Position numbers and translations under genes: made by a program. 12,115 nt of DNA from Candidatus Phoenicimicrobium oleiphilum. GTDB taxonomy: Bacteria > Atribacterota > Phoenicimicrobiia > Phoenicimicrobiales > Phoenicimicrobiaceae. The stretch is taken from positions 1 through 12,115 of the forward strand of contig JBDIWJ010000045.1 of NCBI GenBank assembly GCA_039638295.1. The letters are read 5' to 3'. The notes below the pieces were generated by a model. That model saw nothing but the letters and a program-made list of their open reading frames with translations, was not told where the DNA came from and searched no databases. Below, piece after piece: positions 1 to 12,115 of the stretch (position 1 is the stretch's first letter; every line of letters begins with the position of its first letter).

Positions 1-166
1 TTCCCTTTTTGTTTTGTCAAAGAGCAAAAAAGAGAGGATGATTTTCACAGTTTGCCTTATTAGCAAAGGATTTGGAACTGTTTTTCACACGGTCTGACGG
101 TTCTCTGTTTCACTTTTAAGAACCTGGTTAATTAAACTTATGAAATAGGATAAAGTAAGATAAAAT

Positions 167-1141
167 ATGAAAACATTACTGGAAATAAAAAATTTAAAAA
201 CACACTTTTTTACCCATGAGGGGATAGTAAAAGCAGTAGATGGAGTTAGTTTAAAGATTAATCAAGGAGAAACCTTAGGAATTGTAGGAGAATCAGGGAG
301 CGGGAAAAGTGTTACAGCTTTATCGATAATGAGATTAATTCCTCAGCCTCCCGGGAAAATTATTAACGGGGAAGTGTATTTTGAAGGTCAGGATCTCTTA
401 AAGTTGGATGATAAAGAAATAAGAGAGATAAGAGGTAAAAAAATTTCTATGATTTTTCAAGAACCTATGACCTCCTTAGATCCTGTATTCACTATAGGAC
501 ACGAGATAATAGAAACTATTCAGTTACATCAACGACTGAGTAAAACAGAAGCAAGAGAAAAAGCAATAGATATCTTAAAAATTGTGGGAATACCAGATGT
601 AGAAAAGAGAATAGACAATTATCCTCATGAGTTATCGGGAGGGATGAGACAAAGAGTGATGATTGCAATGGCCCTATCTTGCAATCCTACCTTACTTATT
701 GCTGATGAACCTACTACTGCTCTGGATGTTACTATTCAAGCCCAGATTTTAAGATTAATTAATGATTTAAAGAATAAATTTGGTGCCTCAGTGATGTTGA
801 TAACTCATGATCTGGGAGTGATCGCTGAAATGTGTGATTATGTAGCAGTGATGTATGCTGGGCATATTGTAGAGTATACAGATGTATATACACTTTTTAA
901 ACACTCTCTGCACCCCTATACTAAAGGATTAAGTAAATCGATACCTCGTTTGGATGTAGAAGTGGAACATCTTGATGTAATTCCAGGAATAGTGCCCAAT
1001 CTTCTTGATCTACCATCAGGATGTCCATTTCATCCCCGATGTAATTTCTGTTTTGAAAAATGTGTAGAAGAAATACCCGAATTAATAGAGATAGAAAATT
1101 CTCACCTGGTGAAATGTCATTTGTTTAGCAGGAGAAAATAA
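167..1141 (+). CDS. oppD: Oligopeptide/dipeptide ABC transporter ATP-binding subunit (OppD/DppD type)
   Basis: Walker [10 protein letters not shown]-loop [11 protein letters not shown], signature LSGGMRQR, Walker [12 protein letters not shown], and a C-terminal HPY domain with GCPFHPRC...C...VKCH. Confidence 0.93.
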
Positions 1142-1146
1142 ATAGA

Positions 1147-2109
1147 ATGGAAAAATTGGTAGAAGTTAAAAATCTAAAGAAGTGGTTCTTGATAGGTAAA
1201 TCTCCCCTGGGGAAGAAGGAGGCTATAAGGGCTGTAGATGATGTGAGTTTTTATATAAAGAAGAAAGAAGTTCTTGGTCTTGTCGGCGAGTCAGGATGCG
1301 GAAAGACTACTTGCGGAAAGGTTATTTTAAGGATATTAGAACCTACTGATGGAAGTATTTTTTTTGATGGCCAAGAAATTTCCCATATAAGTCGAAAGGA
1401 GATGTTAAAATTCAGGAAAAGAATGATGATTATCTATCAAGATCCTTTTGGCTCCCTTGATCCCAGAATGACCATAGGAGCAACTATTGCTGAACCGATG
1501 GAAGTGCACAAGATTGGTTCTAAAAAAGAACAAGAAAAGAGGGTAATTGAGATTATGGAAAAGGTTGGTCTTTTTCCTGATCAGATAAACAGATATCCTC
1601 ATGAATTTAGTGGCGGCCAGAGGCAAAGAATAGGAATTGCCCGAGCCTTAGCTACTAACCCAGAGTTTATAGTTGCTGATGAATGTGTATCTGCTCTGGA
1701 TGTTTCTATCCAAGCTCAGATTATTAATTTATTGCAAGATTTACAGAAAGAATTTGGGCTTACTCTTTTATTTGTAGCTCATGATTTAAGTGTTATAAAA
1801 CACATCTGCGATAGAGTTGCAGTAATGTATTTAGGTAAAATTGTAGAGACTGCGCCTAAAAAGGAATTATTTAATAATCCCAAGCATCCCTATACTCAGG
1901 CATTACTTTCTGCAATACCTATTCCTGATCCTAAACTCAGGAAGCGAGGAGAAATCTTAATGGGAGATGTTCCAAGTCCTATTAATCCTCCTTCTGGTTG
2001 TAGATTTCATACCAGGTGTCCTTATGTCAAGGCTATATGTAAAGAAGAAGAGCCTAAGCTTGAAACTTCAGAAAATACCCACCGTGTAGCTTGCCATCTA
2101 TTTGTTTAA
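1147..2109 (+). CDS. oppF: Oligopeptide/dipeptide ABC transporter ATP-binding subunit (OppF/DppF type)
   Basis: Walker A GESGCGKT, YPHEFSGGQRQRIGIARAL, HPYTQALLSA and GDVPSPINPPSGCRFHTRC. Starts 5 nt after the oppD stop. Confidence 0.93.
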   Translation: MEKLVEVKNLKKWFLIGKSPLGKKEAIRAVDDVSFYIKKKEVLGLVGESGCGKTTCGKVILRILEPTDGSIFFDGQEISHISRKEMLKFRKRMMIIYQDPFGSLDPRMTIGATIAEPMEVHKIGSKKEQEKRVIEIMEKVGLFPDQINRYPHEFSGGQRQRIGIARALATNPEFIVADECVSALDVSIQAQIINLLQDLQKEFGLTLLFVAHDLSVIKHICDRVAVMYLGKIVETAPKKELFNNPKHPYTQALLSAIPIPDPKLRKRGEILMGDVPSPINPPSGCRFHTRCPYVKAICKEEEPKLETSENTHRVACHLFV

Positions 2110-2268
2110 ATATATATACGAGAATTGAAATCTTCAAGTTAATCATTACAATCAACTATTTTGGCTAAACTGGTAATTCTTATCATTGCTTCAATTAATA
2201 CCCCAAAATTGATCAAAATATTAAGTTTCTATTATACTGTAACATAATTATTAACCAGTTGGTTGATT

Positions 2269-2296
2269 TTGACTTTTTGCAAAAAAATGATATAAT
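2269..2296 (+). promoter_or_regulatory. Putative sigma70 promoter for carD
   Basis: TTGACT (2269-2274), 16-bp spacer, extended -10 TG-A-TATAAT (TG 2288-2289, TATAAT 2291-2296). Confidence 0.65.
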
Positions 2297-2507
2297 AATA
2301 AAGGAAAAATAAAAAAACAAAAAGAGATTTATTTAAAAGTATGGAAATTTTTTAAATTTTTATATCTTTAAACTGGGACAAGATTAAGACAGAAATAAAG
2401 GGGATTTCAGGAGAAAAGAATTCCCTATTGGTTATATTGTGATTCTCTTTTTGTATAAAACAGGAGAGGAAGTGAGAAATGGATTATTAATTAATTAATC
2501 CAAAAAA

Positions 2508-3023
2508 ATGTTTAAAATTGGCGACAAAGTTTCTCACCCAGCGTTTGGAGTTGGAGATATAAAAAAGATAGAAGAAAAAAATTTTTTAGGCAAAAAACAG
2601 AAATATTATATTTTAAAACTAATGGTAAATGAAATGACTTTGATGATTCCCGTAAACAGAGCAAAAGAAATTGGGTTAAGGCATATTATCAATCCCAAAA
2701 CAGTTCCAGAGGTATTAAGTGTATTAGGGGATAAAGTAGATAATGAAATGGAAGAAAATTATAAGCACAGGATAAAATCTCAATCAGAAATGGTGGATAG
2801 TGGCGATATCCTAAAAGTAGCTCAAGTGGTAAAAAATTATATTCACTTAGATAATAGAGATAAATTATCTACTACCGAAAAAGGATTATATGAGAGAGCT
2901 CGTAAAATATTGGAAAGTGAAATTAGTGCAGCCTGTAATATTGAAAAGAGTAAAGTAAAATTTATGATCAAAGAAGCAATTAATAAGGGAAGAGTTGGTA
3001 AAGCAGAAAGAAAAAATCATTAG
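2508..3023 (+). CDS. carD: CarD/CdnL family RNA polymerase-binding transcription factor
   Basis: N-terminal FKIGDKVxHPxxGVGxI...YYILK...LMIPV...IGLR domain, then C-terminal helical domain SGDILKVAQVV...LSTTEKGLYERARKILESEI; 171 aa. Confidence 0.9.
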   Translation: MFKIGDKVSHPAFGVGDIKKIEEKNFLGKKQKYYILKLMVNEMTLMIPVNRAKEIGLRHIINPKTVPEVLSVLGDKVDNEMEENYKHRIKSQSEMVDSGDILKVAQVVKNYIHLDNRDKLSTTEKGLYERARKILESEISAACNIEKSKVKFMIKEAINKGRVGKAERKNH

Positions 3024-3068
3024 AATTAGAAAGTGAAAAATATTTTATGTTTAAAATTAATAATTGGT

Positions 3069-3102
3069 AAAATAGTCTATGTGAAAACATAGGCTATTTT
3101 TT
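3069..3102 (+). terminator. Intrinsic terminator after carD
   Basis: AAAATAGTCTATGT-GAAA-ACATAGGCTATTTT hairpin (14 bp with one G-U pair) running into a T tract. Confidence 0.8.
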
Positions 3103-3109
3103 ATATTTT

Positions 3110-3138
3110 TTGAATTAAAATTTTTACAGTAGTATTAT
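3110..3138 (+). promoter_or_regulatory. Putative sigma70 promoter for folD
   Basis: TTGAAT (3110-3115), 17 bp, TATTAT (3133-3138), just downstream of the carD terminator. The AT-rich background lowers certainty. Confidence 0.45.
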
Positions 3139-3187
3139 ATCAATAGCTGTAAAAAGTAAAAAATTACAGAGAGGAGAGAAGTTTATC

Positions 3188-4054
3188 ATGGCCAAGATTA
3201 TTGATGGAAGAAAGATAGCTAAAGAACTTAATGAATCATTAAAAGTAGAAGTAGAAGAGTTTGTAAAGAAAAATAAACTTATTCCTAAATTAGCAGCGGT
3301 AATCGCAGGAGAAGATCCCGCATCATTGTTTTATGTTAAAATGATTAGCCGGGCTTGCGAAAAGGTTTCTATTGATTTTGAAAAATACAGTCTATCTGAA
3401 AATACTAACGAAAAAGAAATTCTTAAACTTATAGAAAATTTGAATAAAAATAAAAAAATAAGTGGAATTATAGTGCAAGTTCCCTTACCTAAACATATTA
3501 ATCAGGAGAGGGTACAAGAGGCAGTCAGCCCTTCCAAGGATGTAGATTGTTTTAATCCTATTAACATGGGAAGATTGGCTTTAGGGAAACCAGAGTTTTT
3601 ACCTTGCACTCCTTACGCAGTATACGAGCTGATAAAAAGAGAGAATATTAAGGTCGAAGGAAAACATACAGTTATTGTGGGAAGAAGTAGTATTGTAGGA
3701 AAACCAATGTCACTTATACTTCTCCAGAAAGAGCCGTATGCCAATGCTACCCTTACAGTCTGTCATTCCCGGACCAATGATTTGGCTTACTATACTTGCC
3801 AGGCAGATATTTTAATTGTAGCAGTAGGTATACCTAAAATAATTAAAAAAGATATGGTTAAAGAGGGAGCAGTGGTTATAGATGTAGGGACCAATGAAGT
3901 GGAGGGAAAATTAGTTGGGGATGTAGCTTATGAAGAAGTCTTGGATAAAGTATCTGTTATTACCCCCGTCCCTGGAGGTGTTGGACCAATAACTAATATT
4001 ATGCTGATGAAAAATACCTTGAAAGCAGCAGAAAATTTAGTGAACATTGAATAA
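3188..4054 (+). CDS. folD: Bifunctional methylenetetrahydrofolate dehydrogenase/cyclohydrolase
   Basis: IIDG start, GEDPASxxYVxxI, GIIVQVPLP, KDVD, PCTP, VGRSSIVGKP, VIDVG, LVGDV, TPVPGGVGP. SD GAGGAG upstream. Confidence 0.96.
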   Translation: MAKIIDGRKIAKELNESLKVEVEEFVKKNKLIPKLAAVIAGEDPASLFYVKMISRACEKVSIDFEKYSLSENTNEKEILKLIENLNKNKKISGIIVQVPLPKHINQERVQEAVSPSKDVDCFNPINMGRLALGKPEFLPCTPYAVYELIKRENIKVEGKHTVIVGRSSIVGKPMSLILLQKEPYANATLTVCHSRTNDLAYYTCQADILIVAVGIPKIIKKDMVKEGAVVIDVGTNEVEGKLVGDVAYEEVLDKVSVITPVPGGVGPITNIMLMKNTLKAAENLVNIE

Positions 4055-4067
4055 TGAATATTGATTC
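4040..4067 (+). repeat. Heptamer tandem array overlapping the folD 3' end
   Basis: GTGAACA TTGAATA ATGAATA TTGATTC; contains the folD stop TAA (4052-4054). Confidence 0.6.
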
Positions 4068-4107
4068 GTATCGTGTAATATTTAAAGCAAATCAGAAATT
4101 TGGAGAA

Positions 4108-4131
4108 GTAGGGGCATAATACTTCGTGCCC
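4108..4131 (+). repeat. Degenerate GTAG-type REP-like hairpin
   Basis: GTAG followed by GGGCAT...GTGCCC imperfect stem. Confidence 0.45.
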
Positions 4132-4258
4132 AAATCAAGAAAGTAGATTTCCGTTTCCCTGGGACCGACAGGAGAGGATTATAGATAGGGATGACCACTG
4201 CAAAATAAGTTTTTAAAGCCAGGTAAATATAGTGGTTTGATTTAAGAGCCTAATAATC

Positions 4259-4282
4259 GTAGGACAGGCGTCTTGCCTGTCT
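4259..4282 (+). repeat. GTAG-type REP-like hairpin
   Basis: GTAG + GACAGGC-GTCTT-GCCTGTC (7-bp perfect stem), just upstream of the osmC Shine-Dalgarno. Confidence 0.6.
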
Positions 4283-4303
4283 ATTGAAAGTAAGGAGGAA
4301 AAG

Positions 4304-4744
4304 ATGAATATACGAACTTATAAAGCCACAACAAAATGGATAGAAGGAAGTAAGTCAGAAACTGAAATAAGGGAGTTTAAAGTTAAAATCGATGAACCTT
4401 TAGAATTAAGGGGAACCAATACTGCCCCCAACCCGGTAGAATTATTGTTAGCTTCCTTAGGTGGATGTATAGTGTTAACTTATCGAGGTTATGCGAAAAA
4501 ATATGGAATAGAAATAGAGAATATAGAAGTTAATTTAGAAGGAGATATGATTCGCGGTGGTTGGGTAGATGAGAAAGACAAAGAGAGAAAAGGTTTCAGA
4601 GAAATTAGATATGAGGTAAGAATAAAAACAAAGGCTTCAGCAGAAAAAGTTAACCAACTTCATAAATTAGTGGAAGAAAAATGTCCAGTATCTGATATGC
4701 TGGTAAACCCAACAGAAGTAAAAGGAATAGTTAAAATTGGATAA
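4304..4744 (+). CDS. OsmC/Ohr family protein
   Basis: IDEPxxLxGTNTAPNPVELLLASLGGC and KCPVSD (two conserved Cys). SD AAGGAGG upstream. Confidence 0.9.
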   Translation: MNIRTYKATTKWIEGSKSETEIREFKVKIDEPLELRGTNTAPNPVELLLASLGGCIVLTYRGYAKKYGIEIENIEVNLEGDMIRGGWVDEKDKERKGFREIRYEVRIKTKASAEKVNQLHKLVEEKCPVSDMLVNPTEVKGIVKIG

Positions 4745-4769
4745 TTCATCAATTTAATATAATTACTGA

Positions 4770-4815
4770 TTCGTTAAATACTGTACGCTATCCGCTAATG
4801 GCGAGCTATACGCTT
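4770..4815 (-). repeat. Heptamer (TAGCGTA-like) array overlapping the mnmG 3' end
   Basis: Minus strand reads AAGCGTA TAGCTCG ccat TAGCGGA TAGCGTA CAGTATT TAACGAA; includes the mnmG stop TAG. Confidence 0.6.
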
Positions 4816-6684
4816 TGTTGTTCTTTTCATCTTCTCAATATTTATCATTAAAGCGGTAATATCTGAAGGAGTTATTCCAGGTATTCTTTTAGCCTGGCCT
4901 AAAGAGATTGGCTGTATTTCTGAAAATCTTTCCTTACCTTCGTGGGATATGCCATGCAACTTGAAATAGTCGATACCTTTAGGTATTTTATAATTTTCTA
5001 ATTTTTTAAATTTTTTTACCTGAATTTCTTGGCGTTTGATATACCCTGCGTATTTAATTTGAATTTCTACCTGCTCAGTCACTTCAGTGGGAAGTTTTGG
5101 TCTATTAGGGTCAATAGAAGAAGTTTGGCTATAAGTTATTTCAGGTCTGGTTAGCAGAGTAGCTAAATTTGTTGCTTCCGAAAGCGGAGTAGTATGCAAT
5201 TTACTCAGCAAATGATTTACTTCTTCAGTTGGGCGAATGATTACTTCTCTTAATCTTTCTTTTTCTTTTTCAATTAATTCTTTTTTCTTCAAGAATTTTT
5301 GGTATCTTTGTTCCGAAATTAGACCTAATTTATAACCATAAGGAGTAAGTCTCAAATCAGCATTGTCCTGTCTTAATAAAAGTCGATACTCAGCTAATCC
5401 AGTCCTTAATCGGTATGGTTCGGTAACACTTTTAGTAACTAAATCATCTATCTCTACTGCGATATAAGCTTCTGAGCGATCCAAAATTAAAGGTTCTTTA
5501 CCTGATATAAGTTGTACTGCATTTATGCCAGCTATCAAACCTTGTTCAGCAGCCTCTTCATAACCAGATGTTCCGTTAATCTGTCCAGCCAAAAATAATC
5601 CTTTAATTATTTTAGTTTCTAAAGAATATTTTAATTGATTGGGATAGATTATATCATATTCAATGGCATATCCATACCGAATAATCTTACACTTTTCTAA
5701 ACCTTTAATAGTATGCAGGGCTTCTTGCTGGGCATCAGCAGGAAGACTAGTAAAAAACCCCTGTAAATATATTTCTTCGGTATTATATCCTTCTGGTTCT
5801 AAAAATATCTGGTGAGAATTTTTTTCAGGAAATCTTATTATTTTATCTTCTACCGAGGGACAATATCTAATGGCTGCACTTTGAATAGTGCCATTTAAAA
5901 GGGGTACGCGATTGATATTGTTTTGGATTACTTTATGGGTCTTTTGGTTAGTTCGGGTCATAAATACTGAAAAATTATTATATATTTTACCTTCATTCTC
6001 AAAGGAGAAGGCCAAAGGTAAATCCGCACTTTTTTGTTCCTCCATTTGGGAAAAATCTACTGTTCTTCTGTCTATACGAGGGGGGGTACTGGTATTTAAT
6101 CTGCCAACTTTTAAACCCAAACTTTTAAGGCTTTCAGCTAGATCAATAGATGCAATCTCACCTGCTCTTCCAGCAGAATAAATAGTCTTTCCGATATAAA
6201 TCAATCCATTCAAAAAAGTTCCGGGAGTTAAAATTACTGTAGGAGAAGAGAATTCTAAACCACTTTTAACCATTACTCCTTTTACTTGGAAATTATTTAC
6301 TATTAATTTTGTTACCATCTCTTGTTTTAAGTCTAAGTTTTCCTGGATTTGAAGAGTGTGTATCATTTCCTGAGTATATAATTTTTTGTCTATCTGTGCT
6401 CTTAGTGCCCACATAGCTGGACCTTTACTAGTATTCAACATTCTTATATGGATAGTAGCTTTATCAGCATTTTTAGCCATTTCTCCGCCTAAGGCGTCGA
6501 TTTCTCGAGCTACATGTCCTTTACCTGGTCCTCCTATTGAGGGGTTGCAGGGCATCAGAGCAATATTGTCTATATTGGAAGTAATAAGAAGTGTTTTTGC
6601 TCCCATTCTGGAAGCAGCCAGGGCAGCTTCACAGCCAGCATGGCCCCCTCCTACTACAATTACATCATATTGGTAGTGTTTCAC
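4795..6684 (-). CDS. mnmG: tRNA U34 modification flavoenzyme MnmG/GidA (divergent motifs)
   Basis: GGGHAGCEAA FAD motif, PCNPSIGG, LNTSKGPA, RAQ, GTFL, RYCPSVEDK, FLEPEG, GYAIEYD, AGQINGTSGYEEA, LRQDNADLRL; 629 aa. GTG start with SD AAGGAG. Confidence 0.93.
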   Translation of the reverse strand: MKHYQYDVIVVGGGHAGCEAALAASRMGAKTLLITSNIDNIALMPCNPSIGGPGKGHVAREIDALGGEMAKNADKATIHIRMLNTSKGPAMWALRAQIDKKLYTQEMIHTLQIQENLDLKQEMVTKLIVNNFQVKGVMVKSGLEFSSPTVILTPGTFLNGLIYIGKTIYSAGRAGEIASIDLAESLKSLGLKVGRLNTSTPPRIDRRTVDFSQMEEQKSADLPLAFSFENEGKIYNNFSVFMTRTNQKTHKVIQNNINRVPLLNGTIQSAAIRYCPSVEDKIIRFPEKNSHQIFLEPEGYNTEEIYLQGFFTSLPADAQQEALHTIKGLEKCKIIRYGYAIEYDIIYPNQLKYSLETKIIKGLFLAGQINGTSGYEEAAEQGLIAGINAVQLISGKEPLILDRSEAYIAVEIDDLVTKSVTEPYRLRTGLAEYRLLLRQDNADLRLTPYGYKLGLISEQRYQKFLKKKELIEKEKERLREVIIRPTEEVNHLLSKLHTTPLSEATNLATLLTRPEITYSQTSSIDPNRPKLPTEVTEQVEIQIKYAGYIKRQEIQVKKFKKLENYKIPKGIDYFKLHGISHEGKERFSEIQPISLGQAKRIPGITPSDITALMINIEKMKRTTKRIARH

Positions 6685-6905
6685 TCTTTCAGTCTCTCCT
6701 TTAGTTTAGGTTAAAATTTTAATAATTACATTTTTTATTTTGATTGTGTATCTTAATTTGATATTTAGTTACTTAGTTAGCCATTTAATTGGTTGTTAAA
6801 TTATTAGTGTTAAACCAATTAATCAGTTAATTAATTTATATTGCATTTTAAATTTTAAACTAACGACTATTTACTATTCACTAAATATTAATTTTTGCTT
6901 AGCAT

Positions 6906-6934
6906 ATTCTAATATATTTTGATATTTATCGCAA
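6906..6934 (-). promoter_or_regulatory. Putative sigma70 promoter for mnmG
   Basis: Minus strand TTGCGA (6934-6929), 17 bp, TAGAAT (6911-6906). Implies a 5' UTR of about 215 nt. Confidence 0.55.
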
Positions 6935-6939
6935 GTTAT

Positions 6940-6974
6940 AGGGAAACAAAGGTGCCAGGCACCTTTGTTTCCCT
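6940..6974. repeat. Perfect 17-bp inverted repeat with 1-nt centre (REP-like palindrome)
   Basis: AGGGAAACAAAGGTGCC-A-GGCACCTTTGTTTCCCT. Confidence 0.9.
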
Positions 6975-7050
6975 GAGCCTAAGAACCGACTAAAATCTAT
7001 ATGATGTGCGTAATATACAAAGAGAAAAAATGATAATTTCTATCTAGTTT

Positions 7051-7143
7051 TACGCGATACACAATAAAAATTTTATTCTGAATCCTGGCTTCTGGCCCCT
7101 ATTTTCTTTGCGAGATATGATTCACGCAATACGCGATACGAAT
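7051..7143. repeat. Cluster of degenerate heptamer arrays
   Basis: TACGCGA TACACAA (7051-7064); TTCTGAA TCCTGGC TTCTGGC (7076-7096); TGCGAGA TATGATT CACGCAA TACGCGA TACGAAT (7109-7143). Confidence 0.6.
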
Positions 7144-7156
7144 TTATCGGTTTTTC

Positions 7157-7185
7157 TTGCCTGAAAAAAATTATTATGTTATACT
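7157..7185 (+). promoter_or_regulatory. Sigma70 promoter for tRNA-Ser
   Basis: TTGCCT (7157-7162), 17-bp spacer, extended -10 TG-T-TATACT (TG 7177-7178, TATACT 7180-7185). Confidence 0.75.
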
Positions 7186-7192
7186 TTTAAAT

Positions 7193-7287
7193 GGAGAGAT
7201 GACCGAGAGGCCGAAGGTGGTTGCCTGCTAAGCAATTGAGCGGGTATAAAACCCGCTCCGAGGGTTCGAATCCCTCTCTCTCCGCCA
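7193..7287 (+). tRNA. tRNA-Ser(GCT)
   Basis: Acceptor GGAGAGA/TCTCTCC; D stem ACC/GGT; anticodon arm GTTGC-CTGCTAA-GCAAT (GCT at 7227-7229); long variable arm GAGCGGGT-ATAAA-ACCCGCTC; T arm GAGGG-TTCGAAT-CCCTC; discriminator G and encoded CCA. Confidence 0.98.
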
Positions 7288-7414
7288 TTTTTTATTTATA
7301 AGTTAAGAGGGTTGCTCTATTGCACGATTTAAGAGAATACAGCAGTATTTTTTATTACGCTACTGGTAGAACCAAAACAGATTATCCCTTCTTTATTTCA
7401 ACTAATAAAGATGT

Positions 7415-7456
7415 AAAAAATTGCCTCAACCTTTTATAAGGGATGGCAATTTTTTT
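7415..7456 (+). terminator. Intrinsic, possibly bidirectional, terminator downstream of tRNA-Ser
   Basis: AAAAAATTGCC...CCTT-TTAT-AAGG...GGCAATTTTTTT. Confidence 0.7.
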
Positions 7457-7512
7457 ATTAATTATAATAAGACAGAGAATGTTTAAAATATTACCTAAAG
7501 GGAGGAGAAATT

Positions 7513-8172
7513 GTGAAATTAGATAGAGGTGATTTTGAAACAGAAAATTTAATTGTTTGGGAGAAAACTATAGGAGAATTATTTCCTGTAGCAATCCCAA
7601 ACAAGTGTATCTGGAAGGATGTTGATGGTATAGTTTCTGTTCTTAATAAATTAGGTTCTATAGATAACCTAAATCATACTCTATTTCCTGTTGGTGGAGG
7701 TCATGATTTAGTAGGAGCCAAAAAGTCATCTGAAAGAGGTTGTATCGAATTTAATACCCCACATTCAATCAGGATTGTAAAGCCAAAATTATTAGAATTC
7801 AATTATTTTCCCAATAATATAGAATGGGCATATTTTCGTTTAGAAACTGCAGCTTTAAAGCCGATTACTCCTGATATTGAACCATTTTCTATAAAGGAAA
7901 AATTAACTGAAATTGAGCCAGGTCATTATGTAGAGAAGGAAGTATGGGAAAAAGGATACCTCGGTTATGATGAAAAAGGTAGTAGAATTTTACTTCCCAA
8001 GAGTGCAAGATTAGTTTCCAGATATTTCAAAGGTTCATTTGTTATCTTTGCTAAAAGTTCTCCTTACCATAAAAACCATGTTACTTATGATGCTAGACAT
8101 GATAAGATGAATAGCAAAAAATTTAGACAATATATTGAAAAGTGTATAATAAAATTTAATGAAGAAAACTGA
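7513..8172 (+). CDS. Hypothetical protein; resembles the non-kinase C-terminal domain of some bacterial Ser/Thr kinases (Stk2-like, unverified)
   Basis: SD GGAGGAG and GTG start, 219-aa open frame. Motifs LFP..P...W, NHTLFPVGGG.DL, SERGCIE, KPKLL, WAYFRLE, GSFVIFAKSSPY, TYDARH..M...FR.YI. The CDS is well supported; the family call is from recall only. Confidence 0.75.
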   Translation: MKLDRGDFETENLIVWEKTIGELFPVAIPNKCIWKDVDGIVSVLNKLGSIDNLNHTLFPVGGGHDLVGAKKSSERGCIEFNTPHSIRIVKPKLLEFNYFPNNIEWAYFRLETAALKPITPDIEPFSIKEKLTEIEPGHYVEKEVWEKGYLGYDEKGSRILLPKSARLVSRYFKGSFVIFAKSSPYHKNHVTYDARHDKMNSKKFRQYIEKCIIKFNEEN

Positions 8173-8191
8173 ATTAGTATCTCTCGCATAT

Positions 8192-8357
8192 TAGCATGGA
8201 GCGTACAGCGCATAGCGAATAGTGAAGAAGAAGAAAGATAAAAGTGAAGGTACTAATAGCTATTCACTTTACTGATTTAATTGGCAAATTACTTAATTGT
8301 ATTTTGCTTACACTTGTAGCCCGTAACTATACGCTAAACGCCATAAACTCTACGCTA
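8192..8357. repeat. Two oppositely oriented heptamer arrays enclosing two small hairpins
   Basis: TAGCATG GAGCGTA CAGCGCA TAGCGAA TAGTGAA (8192-8226) versus GTAGCCC GTAACTA TACGCTA AACGCCA TAAACTC TACGCTA (8316-8357). Confidence 0.65.
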
Positions 8358-8402
8358 ATCTTGTACTAATGACCAAATTAATCTATTAAAGTAGGAGGGT
8401 AA

Positions 8403-9110
8403 ATGACTATGAGTATCCATATCGGAGCGAAAGAAGGGGAAATCGCTAGCACGGTTCTACTGCCTGGCGACCCCTTGAGGGCAAAATATATTGCAGAAAA
8501 CTTTCTTACCAATAGTAGCTGTTATAATGAGATACGTGGTATGTATGGCTATACCGGAACTTATAAAGGAAAAAGAGTTTCAATCCAGGGTACAGGTATG
8601 GGAGTACCTTCTATATTGATATATTTAAATGAACTTATTACAAGTTATAAAGTAAAAAATTTAATCCGAATCGGAAGCTGTGGTTCTATGCAACCATATA
8701 TAAAAATTAGAGATGTTATATTGGCAATGAGTGCCTCTACAGATTCACATATTAACAAAATACGATTTAATGGTATGGATTACGCCTCAACTGCAAATTT
8801 TAACCTCTTAAAAAAGGCTTATGATATTGCCTTAGAGAAAGACATCTCAATAAAAGTAGGAAGTGTTTTAACTACCGATACTTTTTATCATGATGACCCT
8901 AATTCCTGGAAGCACTGGGCGAATTACGGAGTATTAGCGGTAGAAATGGAAACAGCTGCCTTATATACTTTAGCAGCAAAATTCAAAGTCAATGCTCTTT
9001 CGATTTTAACTGTTTCCGATAGTTTGGTAACCAGAGAAGAGACCACAGCCGAAGAGCGTCAAAAGACTTTTAACCAGATGGTGGAGATAGCTCTGGAATT
9101 AGTGGAATAA
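8403..9110 (+). CDS. deoD: Purine nucleoside phosphorylase (DeoD type)
   Basis: [67 protein letters not shown]. The start may be the second Met (8409). Confidence 0.96.
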
Positions 9111-9168
9111 TTAAAGTTTTAGTCTAAAAAATTTCCGTCATAATCGTTTTATAGGGGAGGATAAAAAA

Positions 9169-9982
9169 ATCAAAGTAACCATTTTGGTAGACAATAACAC
9201 TCTGATAGACCGCTACTTTTTGGGAGAGCTGGGAGTGTCCTACCTTATCCAGGATGAAGGGTACAAAATATTATTTGATGTAGGATATTTAGATATTTTT
9301 ATTAAAAATCCCGAAAATGAATATTCATTTTCGGGATTTAGATTACCTGGTCCTTTCTCATGGACACCTCGACCATACCTGGGGGTTAATTTCTTTAATA
9401 AAATATTATACAGAAGCCTCGATAGAAAAAATAGATTATAATAAACTAACTGTAGTTACCCATCCTTCTTCCTTTTTAAGAAAAAAAATTAAGGTTTTCA
9501 AACAGGCAGGTTCTATAGTTTCCCAGGAAGAGTTAAACAAACATTTCAAAATAGAATTAAGTAAAGAACCGCTATGGCTAACCGATAGATTGGTATTTTT
9601 GGGAGAAATAGAAAGAAAGAATGATTTTGAAGCAAAAAATCCAATCGGAAAAGTGGTGAAAGATAATTTTGAAGAGGATGATTATTTAGCAGATGATTCT
9701 GCCTTGGTCTATCGATCAGCAAAAGGTTTGGTGATTATTACCGCCTGTTCTCATTCAGGGATTTGCAATATCGTAGAATATGCTAAAAAGATTTGTAATG
9801 ATGATAGGATAATTGATATAGTCGGGGGATTTCATTTGCTTAACCCGGAGAAGATACAATTGGAAGGTACTTTGAAATATTTAGAGAAAGTCAAACCTTA
9901 CGAAGTGCATGCCTGCCACTGCACTGATTTAAAGTCCAAGATTGCCTTATCTCGAGTGGTAAACCTTAAGGGGGTACCTTGA
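9169..9982 (+). pseudogene. MBL-fold metallo-hydrolase (COG1237-like), disrupted
   Basis: One frame gives (I)KVTILVDNN...GE.GVSYLI...KILFDVG. A second frame from 9317 gives LSHGHLDHTWG, DDSAL, ITACSHSGICN, GGFHL, HACHCT. Frameshift near 9310-9317, ATC in place of the expected start codon, and an apparently truncated 3' end. Confidence 0.85.
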
Positions 9983-10212
9983 TTGCTTTATCTGCTGACG
10001 AAATAATTATGAGTCCTACCGCTGTACTAGGACCAGTAGACCCTCAGTTAGGTCAGTATCCTGCTGCTTCTATAATATCAGTGGTAGAAAAGAAACCGAT
10101 AAAGGATATAGATGACCAAACTTTGATAATGGCTGATATGGGGACCAAAGCTATAAAACAAGTTGAGCAGACTGTTTACGATTTGTTATCTCCCCATTAT
10201 TCTAAAGAGAAG
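9970..10212 (+). pseudogene. Internal fragment of an SDH-family Clp-fold serine protease (DUF114-like)
   Basis: GGTLIALSADEIIMSPTAVLGPVDPQLGQYPAASI...IDDQTLIMAD..KAIKQV. In-frame TAA immediately upstream (9967-9969), no SD, and no downstream WTHDYP motif. The 3' boundary is approximate. Confidence 0.8.
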
Positions 10213-10287
10213 GGTTATTTGAGCGGTTTATAAATTTTTAATATATGCTTAGAATGTTTTTTAAATTATTTAAGGTAACTAAAGTAA

Positions 10288-11067
10288 ATGAAAGAAATGA
10301 AAATGAATTTAAAGAAACGATTCTGGGAAATAGATTTTTTACGGGGAATCGCCATCATTATGATGGTGCTATATCATCTGCTTTATAATTTGCACTATTT
10401 TGCACATTATAATGTCAATGTTTATTCCGGTTTCTGGATGTATTTTGCTCGAACAACTGCCACGATATTTATTTTTTTAGTTGGGGTATCCCTCAGCATA
10501 AGTTTCTCCAGAGCAAAACATTTCTCTCCTAATGTTACTAAGAAAACGCGATTATTTTTAAAATACCTTCGTAGAGGCCTTAAGGTGTTCTCCTGGGGCT
10601 TAATTATAACTTTAATAACCTGGTTTTTTTTGCGAGAAGGTTTCGTAATTTTTGGCATACTTCATCTTATTGGAATTTCCATTATTTTAGCTTATCCTTT
10701 TCTAAAGCTTCACTATTGGAATCTATTAATTGGATTATTTTGCATTTTTGTGGGAGTATATTTAAAGGGTTTTGTTTTTAATTTTTATTGGTTATCCTGG
10801 TTAGGATTTAGACCAGCTCAATTTTATACAGTTGATTATTTCCCCCTTTTGCCCTGGTTTGGGGTTGTTTTAATAGGGATATTTTTTGGTAGTCTACTCT
10901 ATCCGGATTACTCTCGAAAATTTCAGATTGTTGACTTTTCATCCCTTTCAGGAGTAAAAATATTATGTTTTTTAGGTAAGCATTCTTTGTTAATTTATTT
11001 GCTTCATCAACCCTTAATAATTGCTATACTCTATCTTTTTGGCGTAGTTAAAGTAAGTTTATTCTAA
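10288..11067 (+). CDS. DUF1624 / HGSNAT-like multi-pass membrane protein (putative acyltransferase)
   Basis: RFWEIDFLRGIAIIMMVLYH, FIFLVGVS, IFGILHLIG, DYFPLLPWFG, LGKHSLLIYLLHQP. The start could be 10288, 10297 or 10303. Confidence 0.88.
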   Translation: MKEMKMNLKKRFWEIDFLRGIAIIMMVLYHLLYNLHYFAHYNVNVYSGFWMYFARTTATIFIFLVGVSLSISFSRAKHFSPNVTKKTRLFLKYLRRGLKVFSWGLIITLITWFFLREGFVIFGILHLIGISIILAYPFLKLHYWNLLIGLFCIFVGVYLKGFVFNFYWLSWLGFRPAQFYTVDYFPLLPWFGVVLIGIFFGSLLYPDYSRKFQIVDFSSLSGVKILCFLGKHSLLIYLLHQPLIIAILYLFGVVKVSLF

Positions 11068-11115
11068 TTTTATATGTTATTTGTTGAGTATTTATTTCGA
11101 AAAGAGACCTTTACT

Positions 11116-11991
11116 ATGAATCCCACAGCAATAATATTAGTTATAATCTCTGCCTTTATTCACTCTTTTTGGAATTTACTTTCTAAAAAAAGTAAAAATA
11201 AATTAGTATTTAACTGGTATATCGTTTTATTTCAACCTATACTTTACTTTCCTCTATTTTTATATCTTATATTAAGTAATCAAATTGAATTGCCACCAAT
11301 GGGGTGGCTATTTATTATTTTAAGTGCTTTTTTTCATACCTTTTATTTTTATTTCTTAGGAAAGACTTATTCTTATGGCCATCTTTCCTTAACTTACCCC
11401 ATTGCAAGATCTTCACCTCTTTTTGTTCCTTTTCTTGCTTTTTTGTTAGTTAAGGAAGAACTCTCTTTTGTTGGTATATTGGGGATAATAATAATCTTGG
11501 TAGGTGTTTACTTGTTGCATTTAAGGTCTATTAGTTGGAAATCATTTTTAAAATCTACAGAGTATCTAAAAGGTAAAGCCACATCTTATGCCTTTATTAC
11601 TGCTTTTTTTTCTGCTCTATATTCAGTTAATGACAAAATTGGGGTTGGATATGTTCGTCCCTTTGCTTATATCTATATAACCTGCATAGGGGTAAGCGCT
11701 TTTTATCTTCCCATAGTTTTTTCTAAGGATAATCGTAAAGATATTAAATTTGAATGGGAAGATAATAAGAAATCTATTTTAATTTCTTCTTCTTTGACCC
11801 TTCTTTCTTATCTTTTAACTTTATATGCTTTTACAATCGATAAAGTCAGTTATATCGTTTCTTTAAGACAGTCAAGCATAATATTTGGAGTAATTTTAGG
11901 GACTGTTGTGTTAAATGAGGAGTATGGGAAAATTAGAATATTTGCTTCCATAATAATGTTTATCGGTTTTTTCTTGGTAATTATAGCTTAA
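11116..11991 (+). CDS. EamA/DMT family transporter
   Basis: SAFIHSFWNLLSK, Y..G.LSLTYPIARSSP, YSVNDKIGV, SLRQSSIIFG, about 10 hydrophobic segments. The ORF opens at 11074, but Met at 11116 fits the usual family start better. Confidence 0.88.
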   Translation: MNPTAIILVIISAFIHSFWNLLSKKSKNKLVFNWYIVLFQPILYFPLFLYLILSNQIELPPMGWLFIILSAFFHTFYFYFLGKTYSYGHLSLTYPIARSSPLFVPFLAFLLVKEELSFVGILGIIIILVGVYLLHLRSISWKSFLKSTEYLKGKATSYAFITAFFSALYSVNDKIGVGYVRPFAYIYITCIGVSAFYLPIVFSKDNRKDIKFEWEDNKKSILISSSLTLLSYLLTLYAFTIDKVSYIVSLRQSSIIFGVILGTVVLNEEYGKIRIFASIIMFIGFFLVIIA

Positions 11992-12115
11992 ATAAAAAAT
12001 GCTACAATTTTTATTTATTGTTTTATATTTATAAATATAACTAAAAATTTAAACAAAGAAAGTAAAAAACAAACTGTGGGATTTAAGGTTTTTAGAGATT
12101 TTTTACAATTTTATT

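Follow-up and report, generated by a model that had tools for sequence, protein, structure and literature searches.

The complex of MnmE and MnmG is among the most conserved transfer RNA (tRNA) modification machines, and its human homologues, when mutated, cause mitochondrial disease. The stretch analysed here (the window: 12,115 nucleotides, positions 1 to 12,115 of the forward strand of contig JBDIWJ010000045.1, assembly GCA_039638295.1 of Candidatus Phoenicimicrobium oleiphilum, phylum Atribacterota) encodes an MnmG with replacements in six conserved motifs. Do these replacements alter the chemistry of the enzyme, as proposed by an earlier reading of the letters alone (the sequence-only reading), or do they remodel the surroundings of an ordinary reaction? 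We found the variant residues fixed across six of the seven families of the phylum, under strong purifying selection. The changes probably re-shape the pocket where MnmE and tRNA dock, and the enzyme likely continues to make an ordinary modified uridine. We lean towards the explanation that the active-site entrance and the MnmE/tRNA interface were remodelled by compensated, co-evolved changes, in a working enzyme that is the only MnmG of its genome and retains ordinary chemistry.

Identity and substituted motifs of the window MnmG

The mnmG coding sequence, of the variant that we call N-type, was located at 4795-6684 on the minus strand. It starts with GTG and encodes 629 residues with zero internal stops; a Shine-Dalgarno-like AAGGAGAG, read directly from the sequence (6694..6702, minus strand), lies 9 nt before the GTG. 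The protein scored 843.2 bits against TIGR00136 (cut-off 524.85; profile positions 1-615 of 616), matched the solved E. coli MnmG with an E-value of 2.5e-191, and displayed the Pfam layout PF01134 (GIDA) at residues 7-397, PF21680 (GIDA_C_1st) at 458-553 and PF13932 (SAM_GIDA_C) at 557-613. The related TrmFO, from the same superfamily, matched locally at residues 300-406 (74 bits; PDB 3G5Q, E-value 2.5e-10), with scores far below the TrmFO cut-offs (73.9 bits against 262 and 67.5 against 428.65); TrmFO also differs in lacking both an MnmE partner and a C-terminal domain that binds MnmE.

E. coli MnmG (GidA; PDB 3CES, 3CP2, 9HIP-9HIR) shares 49% identity over 615 residues with the window protein, as well as its length, its three-domain layout and an MnmE partner whose tail reads FCIGK. 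The residues kept include the flavin adenine dinucleotide (FAD) motif, C47, C277, T199, T201, R275, K283, Y308, Y377, R427, R436 and E585 (E. coli numbering, used below unless window numbering is indicated). The N-terminal dinucleotide-binding GxGxxG is intact as GGGHAG, with G12 and G14 invariant, and the catalytic cysteines C46 and C275 of the window protein (C47 and C277) are retained in 28/28 variant sequences. In these respects, as in length and reading frame, the sequence-only reading described the gene correctly. Among the 33 functionally important residues in Table S3 of a cryo-electron microscopy study (PMC12397908), 28 are identical in the window MnmG. The five others are G200S, R432L, T375S, W484I and K589R; since the T375, W484 and K589 columns vary in other MnmG proteins too, only G200 and R432 are departures at conserved columns. 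Judged by its sequence, the window gene is the organism's single, working MnmG.

The complete list of notable differences from E. coli comprises K198N, G200S, C242V, G273A, P274I, S313F, A382E, G411A, L413E, F429R, S431G and R432L. The six motif strings named by the sequence-only reading were all found at the residues that it gave, on the minus strand. RLNTSTPPR (window residues 195-203; 6076-6102) contains N197 and S199, corresponding to K198N and G200S, which flank the important T199 and T201. AAIRYCPS (270-277; 5854-5877) forms the start of motif 1, with A271 and I272 replacing G273/P274 while the Arg, the Tyr and the catalytic C275 are kept; the whole MnmG-specific motif 1 (GPRYCPSIEDKxxRF, E. 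coli 273-287) reads AIRYCPSVEDKIIRF here, and beyond its first two residues it is unchanged. QGFFTSLP (308-315; 5740-5763) carries F311 (S313F), three residues past the position of E. coli N310. YEEAAEQG (375-382; 5539-5562), with E380 (A382E), and YIAVEIDD (407-414; 5443-5466), with A409 and E411 (G411A, L413E), are changed only in families f1 and f2 of the seven families, f1-f7. Finally, YRLRTGLAEYR (424-434; 5383-5415) holds R427, G429 and L430 (F429R, S431G, R432L); this part of the helical domain is in contact with MnmE loop 171-187 and with the tRNA.

An alignment of 84 sequences gave the consensus GRLKTGTPPR, GPRYCPSIEDK, QGxSTSLP, YEEAAAQG, YIGVLIDD and YRMFTSRAEYR, reproducing that quoted by the sequence-only reading. 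For a broader background we used 147 non-variant MnmG sequences, consisting of 144 cluster representatives (41-54% identity; search of 1.84 billion proteins), two f7 proteins and one foreign copy. In this set, the canonical residues are K in 88% and G in 88% (RLKTGTP), G in 92% and P in 91% (GPRYCPS), S in 78% (STSLP) and, in window numbering, G409 in 97%, S429 in 88% and R430 in 93%; the full variant set occurred in 0/147. A column scan of 28 variant sequences against the 147, made regardless of the residues already listed, returned Q80H, K198N, G200C/S, C242V, G273A/P, P274I/V, S313F, M428L, S431G and R432L/K as columns at least 75% conserved elsewhere and replaced clade-wide. The list of the sequence-only reading had missed the clade-wide C242V and Q80H. 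C242 is Cys in 90% of other MnmG, and its replacement (V240 codon, 5965..5967, minus strand) co-varies with K198; the residue corresponding to Q80 (H79 codon, 6448..6450, minus strand) is Gln in 76% and His in 20% of other MnmG. At F429R, Arg was present in 47/47 variant sequences, in a column that is only ~76% Phe elsewhere. Changes confined to f1/f2 were V60A, V92M, S262V, A382E, G411A, L413E, L582I and L590F, and those confined to f3-f6 were L84V, G267S, I269S, Y276E, A342G, A433V, L439I and L457T.

Distribution across the phylum and selection

The Atribacterota source genome (G000) is assembled into 83 contigs totalling 1.65 Mb, with a completeness of 91%. MnmG matches were obtained in 84/86 species genomes of the phylum, above the cut-off in 78/86. 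We read 50 of these genes, namely the 30 best-scoring loci and 20 picked to cover families f2-f6, and 47 carried the core set K198N, G200C/S, C242V, loss of G273/P274, S313F, F429R, S431G and R432L/K. The other three were the genes of the two f7 genomes and an additional copy in G042, on a contig of 6 kb. On top of the core set, A382E, L413E and R432L were found in 32/32 f1/f2 sequences and in 0/15 f3-f6 sequences, while Y276E and R432K were found in 15/15 of the latter. Residue 199 (window numbering) is Cys in 40 sequences and Ser in seven, among them the window protein. Each motif was present in 118-119 of 119 metagenome relatives (83-100% identity), none of which has Gly-Pro before RYCPS. 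The substitutions are therefore concerted, as the sequence-only reading had supposed; they are also clade-wide and not private to one assembly.

The canonical f7 MnmG (G033, G034) comes from the same phylum and is likewise unlinked to mnmE, but it keeps RLKTGT, GPRYCPS, STSLP, AAAQG and YRLFTSRAEYR and has a TIGR01212 radical-SAM gene nearby. The window MnmG is 57% identical to the f7 protein and 53-55% identical to the variant f3-f6 proteins. Being as close to a canonical protein as to other variants, it shows that the signature is not a by-product of general divergence, and fixation of the same residues across a clade of only 53-55% overall identity is more than chance.

The reading frame was open in all 50 genes examined, and the ratio of nonsynonymous to synonymous substitution rates (dN/dS) was 0.05-0.10 against seven relatives of 81-91% identity; an eighth pair (L001 and L050, 79% identity) had saturated dS and gave no estimate. 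The variant residues are retained through synonymous change, with five codons used for R427, five for L430, four for G429 and two each for N197, F311, E380 and E411 (window numbering). Nearly identical DNA was present in sequencing runs from at least six studies. Contigs of three RNA libraries (two studies) also cover the gene with 0-1 mismatches; we did not use them as evidence of transcription, because contigs cannot show it and one library shares break points with a DNA run.

Location of the changed residues and the MnmE interface

In free MnmG, motif 1 (273-287) is disordered; it becomes ordered upon MnmE binding and then contacts the MnmE C-terminal helix inside the FAD pocket (PMC12397908). 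The C-terminal carboxylate of MnmE lies near MnmG K283, N310 and P278, and MnmG C277 is 4 Å from MnmE C451 (PMC12397908). MnmG residues 427-431 contact MnmE loop 171-187, with S431 contacting D175 (PMC12397908). T199, the T199/G200 double mutant, T201, Y308, R427, R432 and R436 were functionally important, R432 being required also for tRNA binding (PMC12397908); its equivalent in A. aeolicus is Arg439 (PMC4027165). Several of the changes, at G200, R432, motif 1 and residues 427-431, thus fall at places of documented function. From these descriptions and from covariation, at least three of the six motifs, together with C242, therefore belong to the platform that docks the C277 loop and the tail of MnmE; the MnmE/tRNA-contact helix accounts for one further motif (YRLRTGLAEYR). 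The other changes were placed by domain only: A382E at the end of the FAD domain, G411A/L413E at the start of the helical domain.

The partner protein has changed as well. In E. coli and 37 mostly Bacillota proteins, the MnmE loop shows E171, I174, D175 and an acidic run past P177. Family f7 and two intermediate lineages keep this E..I(D/S)(Y/F)PD-acidic pattern, with D175 being Ser in f7. The loop reads EAP(M/L/I)DFP(D/E)Q(D/G) in 8/9 f1/f2 proteins and EANIDFPDQD in the ninth (L068). The prevailing form in f3-f6 is Q..CDF.D with hydrophobic residues after it. Gln stands at E171 in 8/11, and nine of these 11 proteins (L057-L064, L071-L073) have Cys at I174, adjoining the functionally important D175. 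Negative charge was lost on the MnmE loop alongside the positive charge lost on MnmG. The MnmE C-terminal helix and FC(I/V/L)GK tail are unchanged.

Gene copy number, partners and downstream pathway

A profile search and tblastn each found one mnmG in G000, and genomes of the phylum as a rule carry a single variant mnmG. This contradicts the suggestion of a neofunctionalised paralogue. When the genome was checked for mnmE and for a second, canonical mnmG, the former was found and the latter was absent. As the sequence-only reading had remarked, mnmG lies apart from mnmE and rsmG: the G000 mnmE, a canonical one, is on another contig (C61:3110-4480; 399 bits), between a jag-like gene upstream and rsmG downstream. 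Its product ends in FCIGK and matches the solved MnmE proteins of Nostoc (E-value 2e-107) and Thermotoga (3e-105). MnmE was present in 42/43 high-quality genomes of the phylum. G000 also encodes mnmA and all six tRNAs that serve as U34 substrates of MnmEG in E. coli: Lys-UUU, Glu-UUC, Gln-UUG, Leu-UAA, Arg-UCU and Gly-UCC.

In many bacteria, mnmG itself sits between mnmE and rsmG. Tblastn revealed no mnmG remnant in this spacer of G000. The 476-base spacer (L002 2872-3347, G000:C61) contains two adjacent TGTGGATAA words, which we take to match the DnaA-box consensus, and may be a replication origin.

As for further processing, MnmC2 (PF05430) and MnmM (PF06962) were each found in 0/86 phylum genomes, and no selenouridine synthase was found in G000. 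TIGR01212 (YhcC/MnmL family) occurred in 4/86 genomes, always beside a canonical mnmG (in the f7 genome G034 and on short contigs of G042, G056 and G059), and was absent from all variant-only genomes among the 86. With these enzymes missing, the MnmEG product is probably final apart from 2-thiolation. We considered the absence of TIGR01212 as a marker of the variant and rejected it, because both canonical-MnmG genomes checked outside the phylum (2/2) lack this family too. A literature search on tRNA modification in Atribacter returned nothing relevant.

Three f1 bins (G042:C102/L091, G059:C52/L089 and G056:C221/L090) contain a second, canonical mnmG directly followed by the TIGR01212 gene, on contigs of 2-8 kb with a G+C fraction of 0.34-0.36. 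The nearest named relatives of these second copies are from Clostridia/Peptococcaceae at ~62% identity; other relatives reach 71-99%. They may be bin contamination or a transferred copy.

Stepwise origin of the variant

In a maximum-likelihood tree of 175 MnmG sequences, the variant sequences formed one clade (28/28 tips, local support 0.52) with a stem length of 0.07, not a long branch. The sister of this clade (node support 0.91) is P0123, a partial variant that has H79, N197, D199, V240, H271 and Y311 together with canonical L427, S429 and R430 (window numbering). The next branch (support 0.84) comprises f7 and P0129, both canonical. In a genome-contig scan of 6/64 parts of the collection, relatives of P0123 were found in two assemblies labelled uncultured Thermotogae. 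One of these, L094, represents a still earlier state, with K and G kept and V240, H274, A280 and Y311 already present. The intermediates P0123 and L094 show that the set was assembled stepwise: changes in the cluster surrounding K198 preceded those in motif 1 and in the 427-432 helix.

In a comparison of 149 sequences, the status of K198 tracks G200, S313, D282, C242, G271, Y276 and E281, and we read these residues as one coupled cluster that would hold motif 1. K198 is missing from 18/147 other-type MnmG sequences, which fall into the classes Q-A-T (with D282R in 10), N-D-Y/F and S-S-Y. By this comparison, the cluster K198/G200/C242/S313/Y276/D282 has several natural states. In the Q-type MnmG (10/147 background sequences), the same cluster departs from the canonical state, with K198Q, G200A, S313T and often Y276H/F and D282R. 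The Q-type differs from the Atribacterota variant in having other residues at each cluster site and in keeping G273/P274 (10/10), S431 (10/10) and R432 (7/10; L in P0159, N in P0168 and F in P0173).

Proposed mechanism and alternatives

In the mechanism that we propose, K198N, G200C/S, C242V, the loss of G273/P274 and S313F (with Y276E in some families) would re-pack a platform beside the FAD, on which the catalytic C277 loop and the C-terminal FCIGK tail of MnmE would dock. F429R, S431G and R432L/K would re-model the helix touching the acidic loop of MnmE and the tRNA anticodon arm, with the new Arg429 substituting for the lost R432 and the matching MnmE loop of the variant clade having shed acidic residues. 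Together with MnmE, the enzyme is predicted to transfer the methylene of methylene-tetrahydrofolate via FAD to C5 of U34 and to add glycine or ammonium. The predicted product, 5-carboxymethylaminomethyl-(2-thio)uridine (cmnm5(s2)U) or 5-aminomethyl-(2-thio)uridine (nm5(s2)U), would stay unprocessed, given the absence of MnmC, MnmM and MnmL-type enzymes.

Several observations weigh against this proposal. R432, reported to be needed for function and tRNA binding, is Leu in f1/f2, and G273/P274 are conserved at 91-92% elsewhere. The placement of the changes in the same pocket rests on published descriptions and covariation. The MnmE loop varies in other bacteria too (G088), and since changes of state in MnmE and MnmG are confined to two or three branches, their co-evolution is not statistically shown. 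The three f1 genomes with a canonical mnmG beside TIGR01212 must also be kept in mind; should these copies be genuine, N-type and canonical MnmG may not be equivalent. Finally, f1/f2 proteins have lost three units of net charge in the region (one R and two E gained, one K and one R lost), and f3-f6 proteins one unit. The sequence-only reading had noted two basic residues lost and two glutamates gained, which is correct for f1/f2 (R432 as Leu, A382E, L413E), K198 being lost clade-wide; a drop in charge is what its idea of a non-anionic nucleophile would predict as well.

A changed nucleophile is indeed the alternative suggested by that charge, although we regard it as unlikely. The enzyme would either prefer ammonium, making nm5U directly with no need for a cmnm-to-nm enzyme, or use another neutral or cationic amine to give a new xm5U. 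Such a change would agree with the loss of K198 in the whole clade and of R432 in f1/f2, with the acidic gains near the catalytic loop (Y276E in f3-f6, A382E and L413E in f1/f2), with the lack of TIGR01212 in variant-only genomes and of MnmC2 and MnmM throughout the phylum, with the genes adjoining mnmG (glnA in f3/f4/f6, an asparaginase gene in f3/f6) and with the existence of further isotypes of MnmG that depart within the same cluster of residues. However, canonical E. coli MnmEG already takes glycine, ammonium and taurine (PMC10723064), so rewiring is unneeded for ammonium. The MnmEG glycine site is without a description in the literature that we found, and none of the changed residues is tied to it. 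TIGR01212 is missing from canonical-MnmG genomes outside the phylum as well, and the ammonia-gene neighbours vary from family to family and are encoded on the opposite strand. Residue 199 was considered as a new catalytic Cys and rejected, given the interchange of Cys and Ser at this position and the Ser of the window protein. That the Atribacterota N-type is a third natural MnmG isotype, whose remodelled C277-loop platform and tRNA/MnmE-contact helix lead the complex to add a non-glycine nucleophile (obligate ammonium or another amine), seems to us rather improbable; if true, the wobble uridines of the whole phylum would carry an uncatalogued side chain.

The variant could instead handle its cofactor differently, in holding FAD or in reducing it with reduced nicotinamide adenine dinucleotide (NADH) or another reductant, which we consider very improbable. 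Motif 1 was formerly proposed as the NADH site, and its G273/P274 are replaced in 47/47 variant sequences, but cryo-electron microscopy assigns this motif to contacts with the MnmE tail and not to NADH (PMC12397908). A382E falls in the C-terminal FAD-binding motif (GQINGT.GYEEAA.QG), five residues past Y377; it is, however, limited to f1/f2, and GxGxxG and the other FAD-motif residues are intact. Ferredoxin-like genes adjoin mnmG in f6, but also in f7, where the gene is canonical. Loss of function under relaxed selection, or an assembly or binning artefact, might be suspected from the loss of an experimentally important Arg and the replacement of two near-invariant motif residues. The probability of this is negligible, and we consider decay and artefact excluded by the low dN/dS, the intact frame in 50/50 genes, the same motifs in nearly all metagenome relatives, the near-identical DNA from at least six studies and the retention of MnmE. 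Remodelling of the docking site around an ordinary reaction is the explanation that we favour.

Implications

The variant touches two questions of the field, namely the nucleophile binding site and the assembly of MnmE, FAD, the C277 loop and tRNA. A whole phylum in which the tRNA-binding Arg, the start of motif 1 and K198/G200/C242/S313 are changed under strong selection amounts to a natural mutagenesis experiment, showing which residue combinations can replace one another; the coupled cluster takes at least three alternative natural states (K-, Q- and N-type). A different product would add a new modification to those of the wobble position. With an ordinary product, the compensatory pairs would be helpful for interpreting the 9HIP structure and MTO1 variants.

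Genomic neighbourhood

Up to mnmG, the window encodes two Opp/Dpp-type ATP-binding cassette ATPases, a carD-like gene, folD (3188..4054, plus strand), an OsmC-like gene (4304-4744) and then mnmG on the opposite strand. The sequence-only reading saw a possible functional link in folD; we rejected it, because the convergent carD-folD-mnmG order is found in f1/f2 genomes only. In f3/f6, argG-argH-glnA converges on mnmG, with an asparaginase (Asparaginase_2) gene on the other side, and the f4 locus shows only argH-glnA. These neighbours (glnA, argG, argH and Asparaginase_2; L083 of G005, L084 of G019 and L085 of G030) are ammonia-handling genes on the opposite strand. The divergent tRNA, also raised as a link, is tRNA-Ser(GCU) (7193..7287, plus strand), 508 bases beyond the mnmG start; having G34, it is not an MnmEG substrate. 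With 91.4 bits, the OsmC-like protein fell just short of the cut-off of 95 for the "OsmC-related (seleno)protein" model, and a tRNA-Sec is encoded in G000.

The spacer between mnmG and tRNA-Ser contains a perfect palindrome with 16-base arms (6941-6974). Its 27-base core recurs at ~20 further sites, which are spread over 13 contigs of the genome and include seven on contig C23. Another dispersed repeat occupies ~6859-6894, and metagenome contigs break and depth rises at this spacer. The palindrome looks like a dispersed element of the repetitive extragenic palindromic (REP) type.

Past tRNA-Ser, the window continues with a family-less open reading frame, deoD, a 221-residue frame, an 84-residue fragment and genes for two membrane proteins, an HGSNAT-type acyltransferase and a phn_DUF6 family protein. 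The family-less frame (219 residues, 7513-8172) had no Pfam or NCBIfam match, nor did a 222-residue frame at the same place in G063. Within 9184-10233, the 221-residue frame resembles metallo-beta-lactamase profiles over no more than their first ~30 residues, and the 84-residue frame matches positions 136-213 of a 286-position profile of SDH-type ClpP-like proteases; these gene fragments are probably pseudogene remnants.

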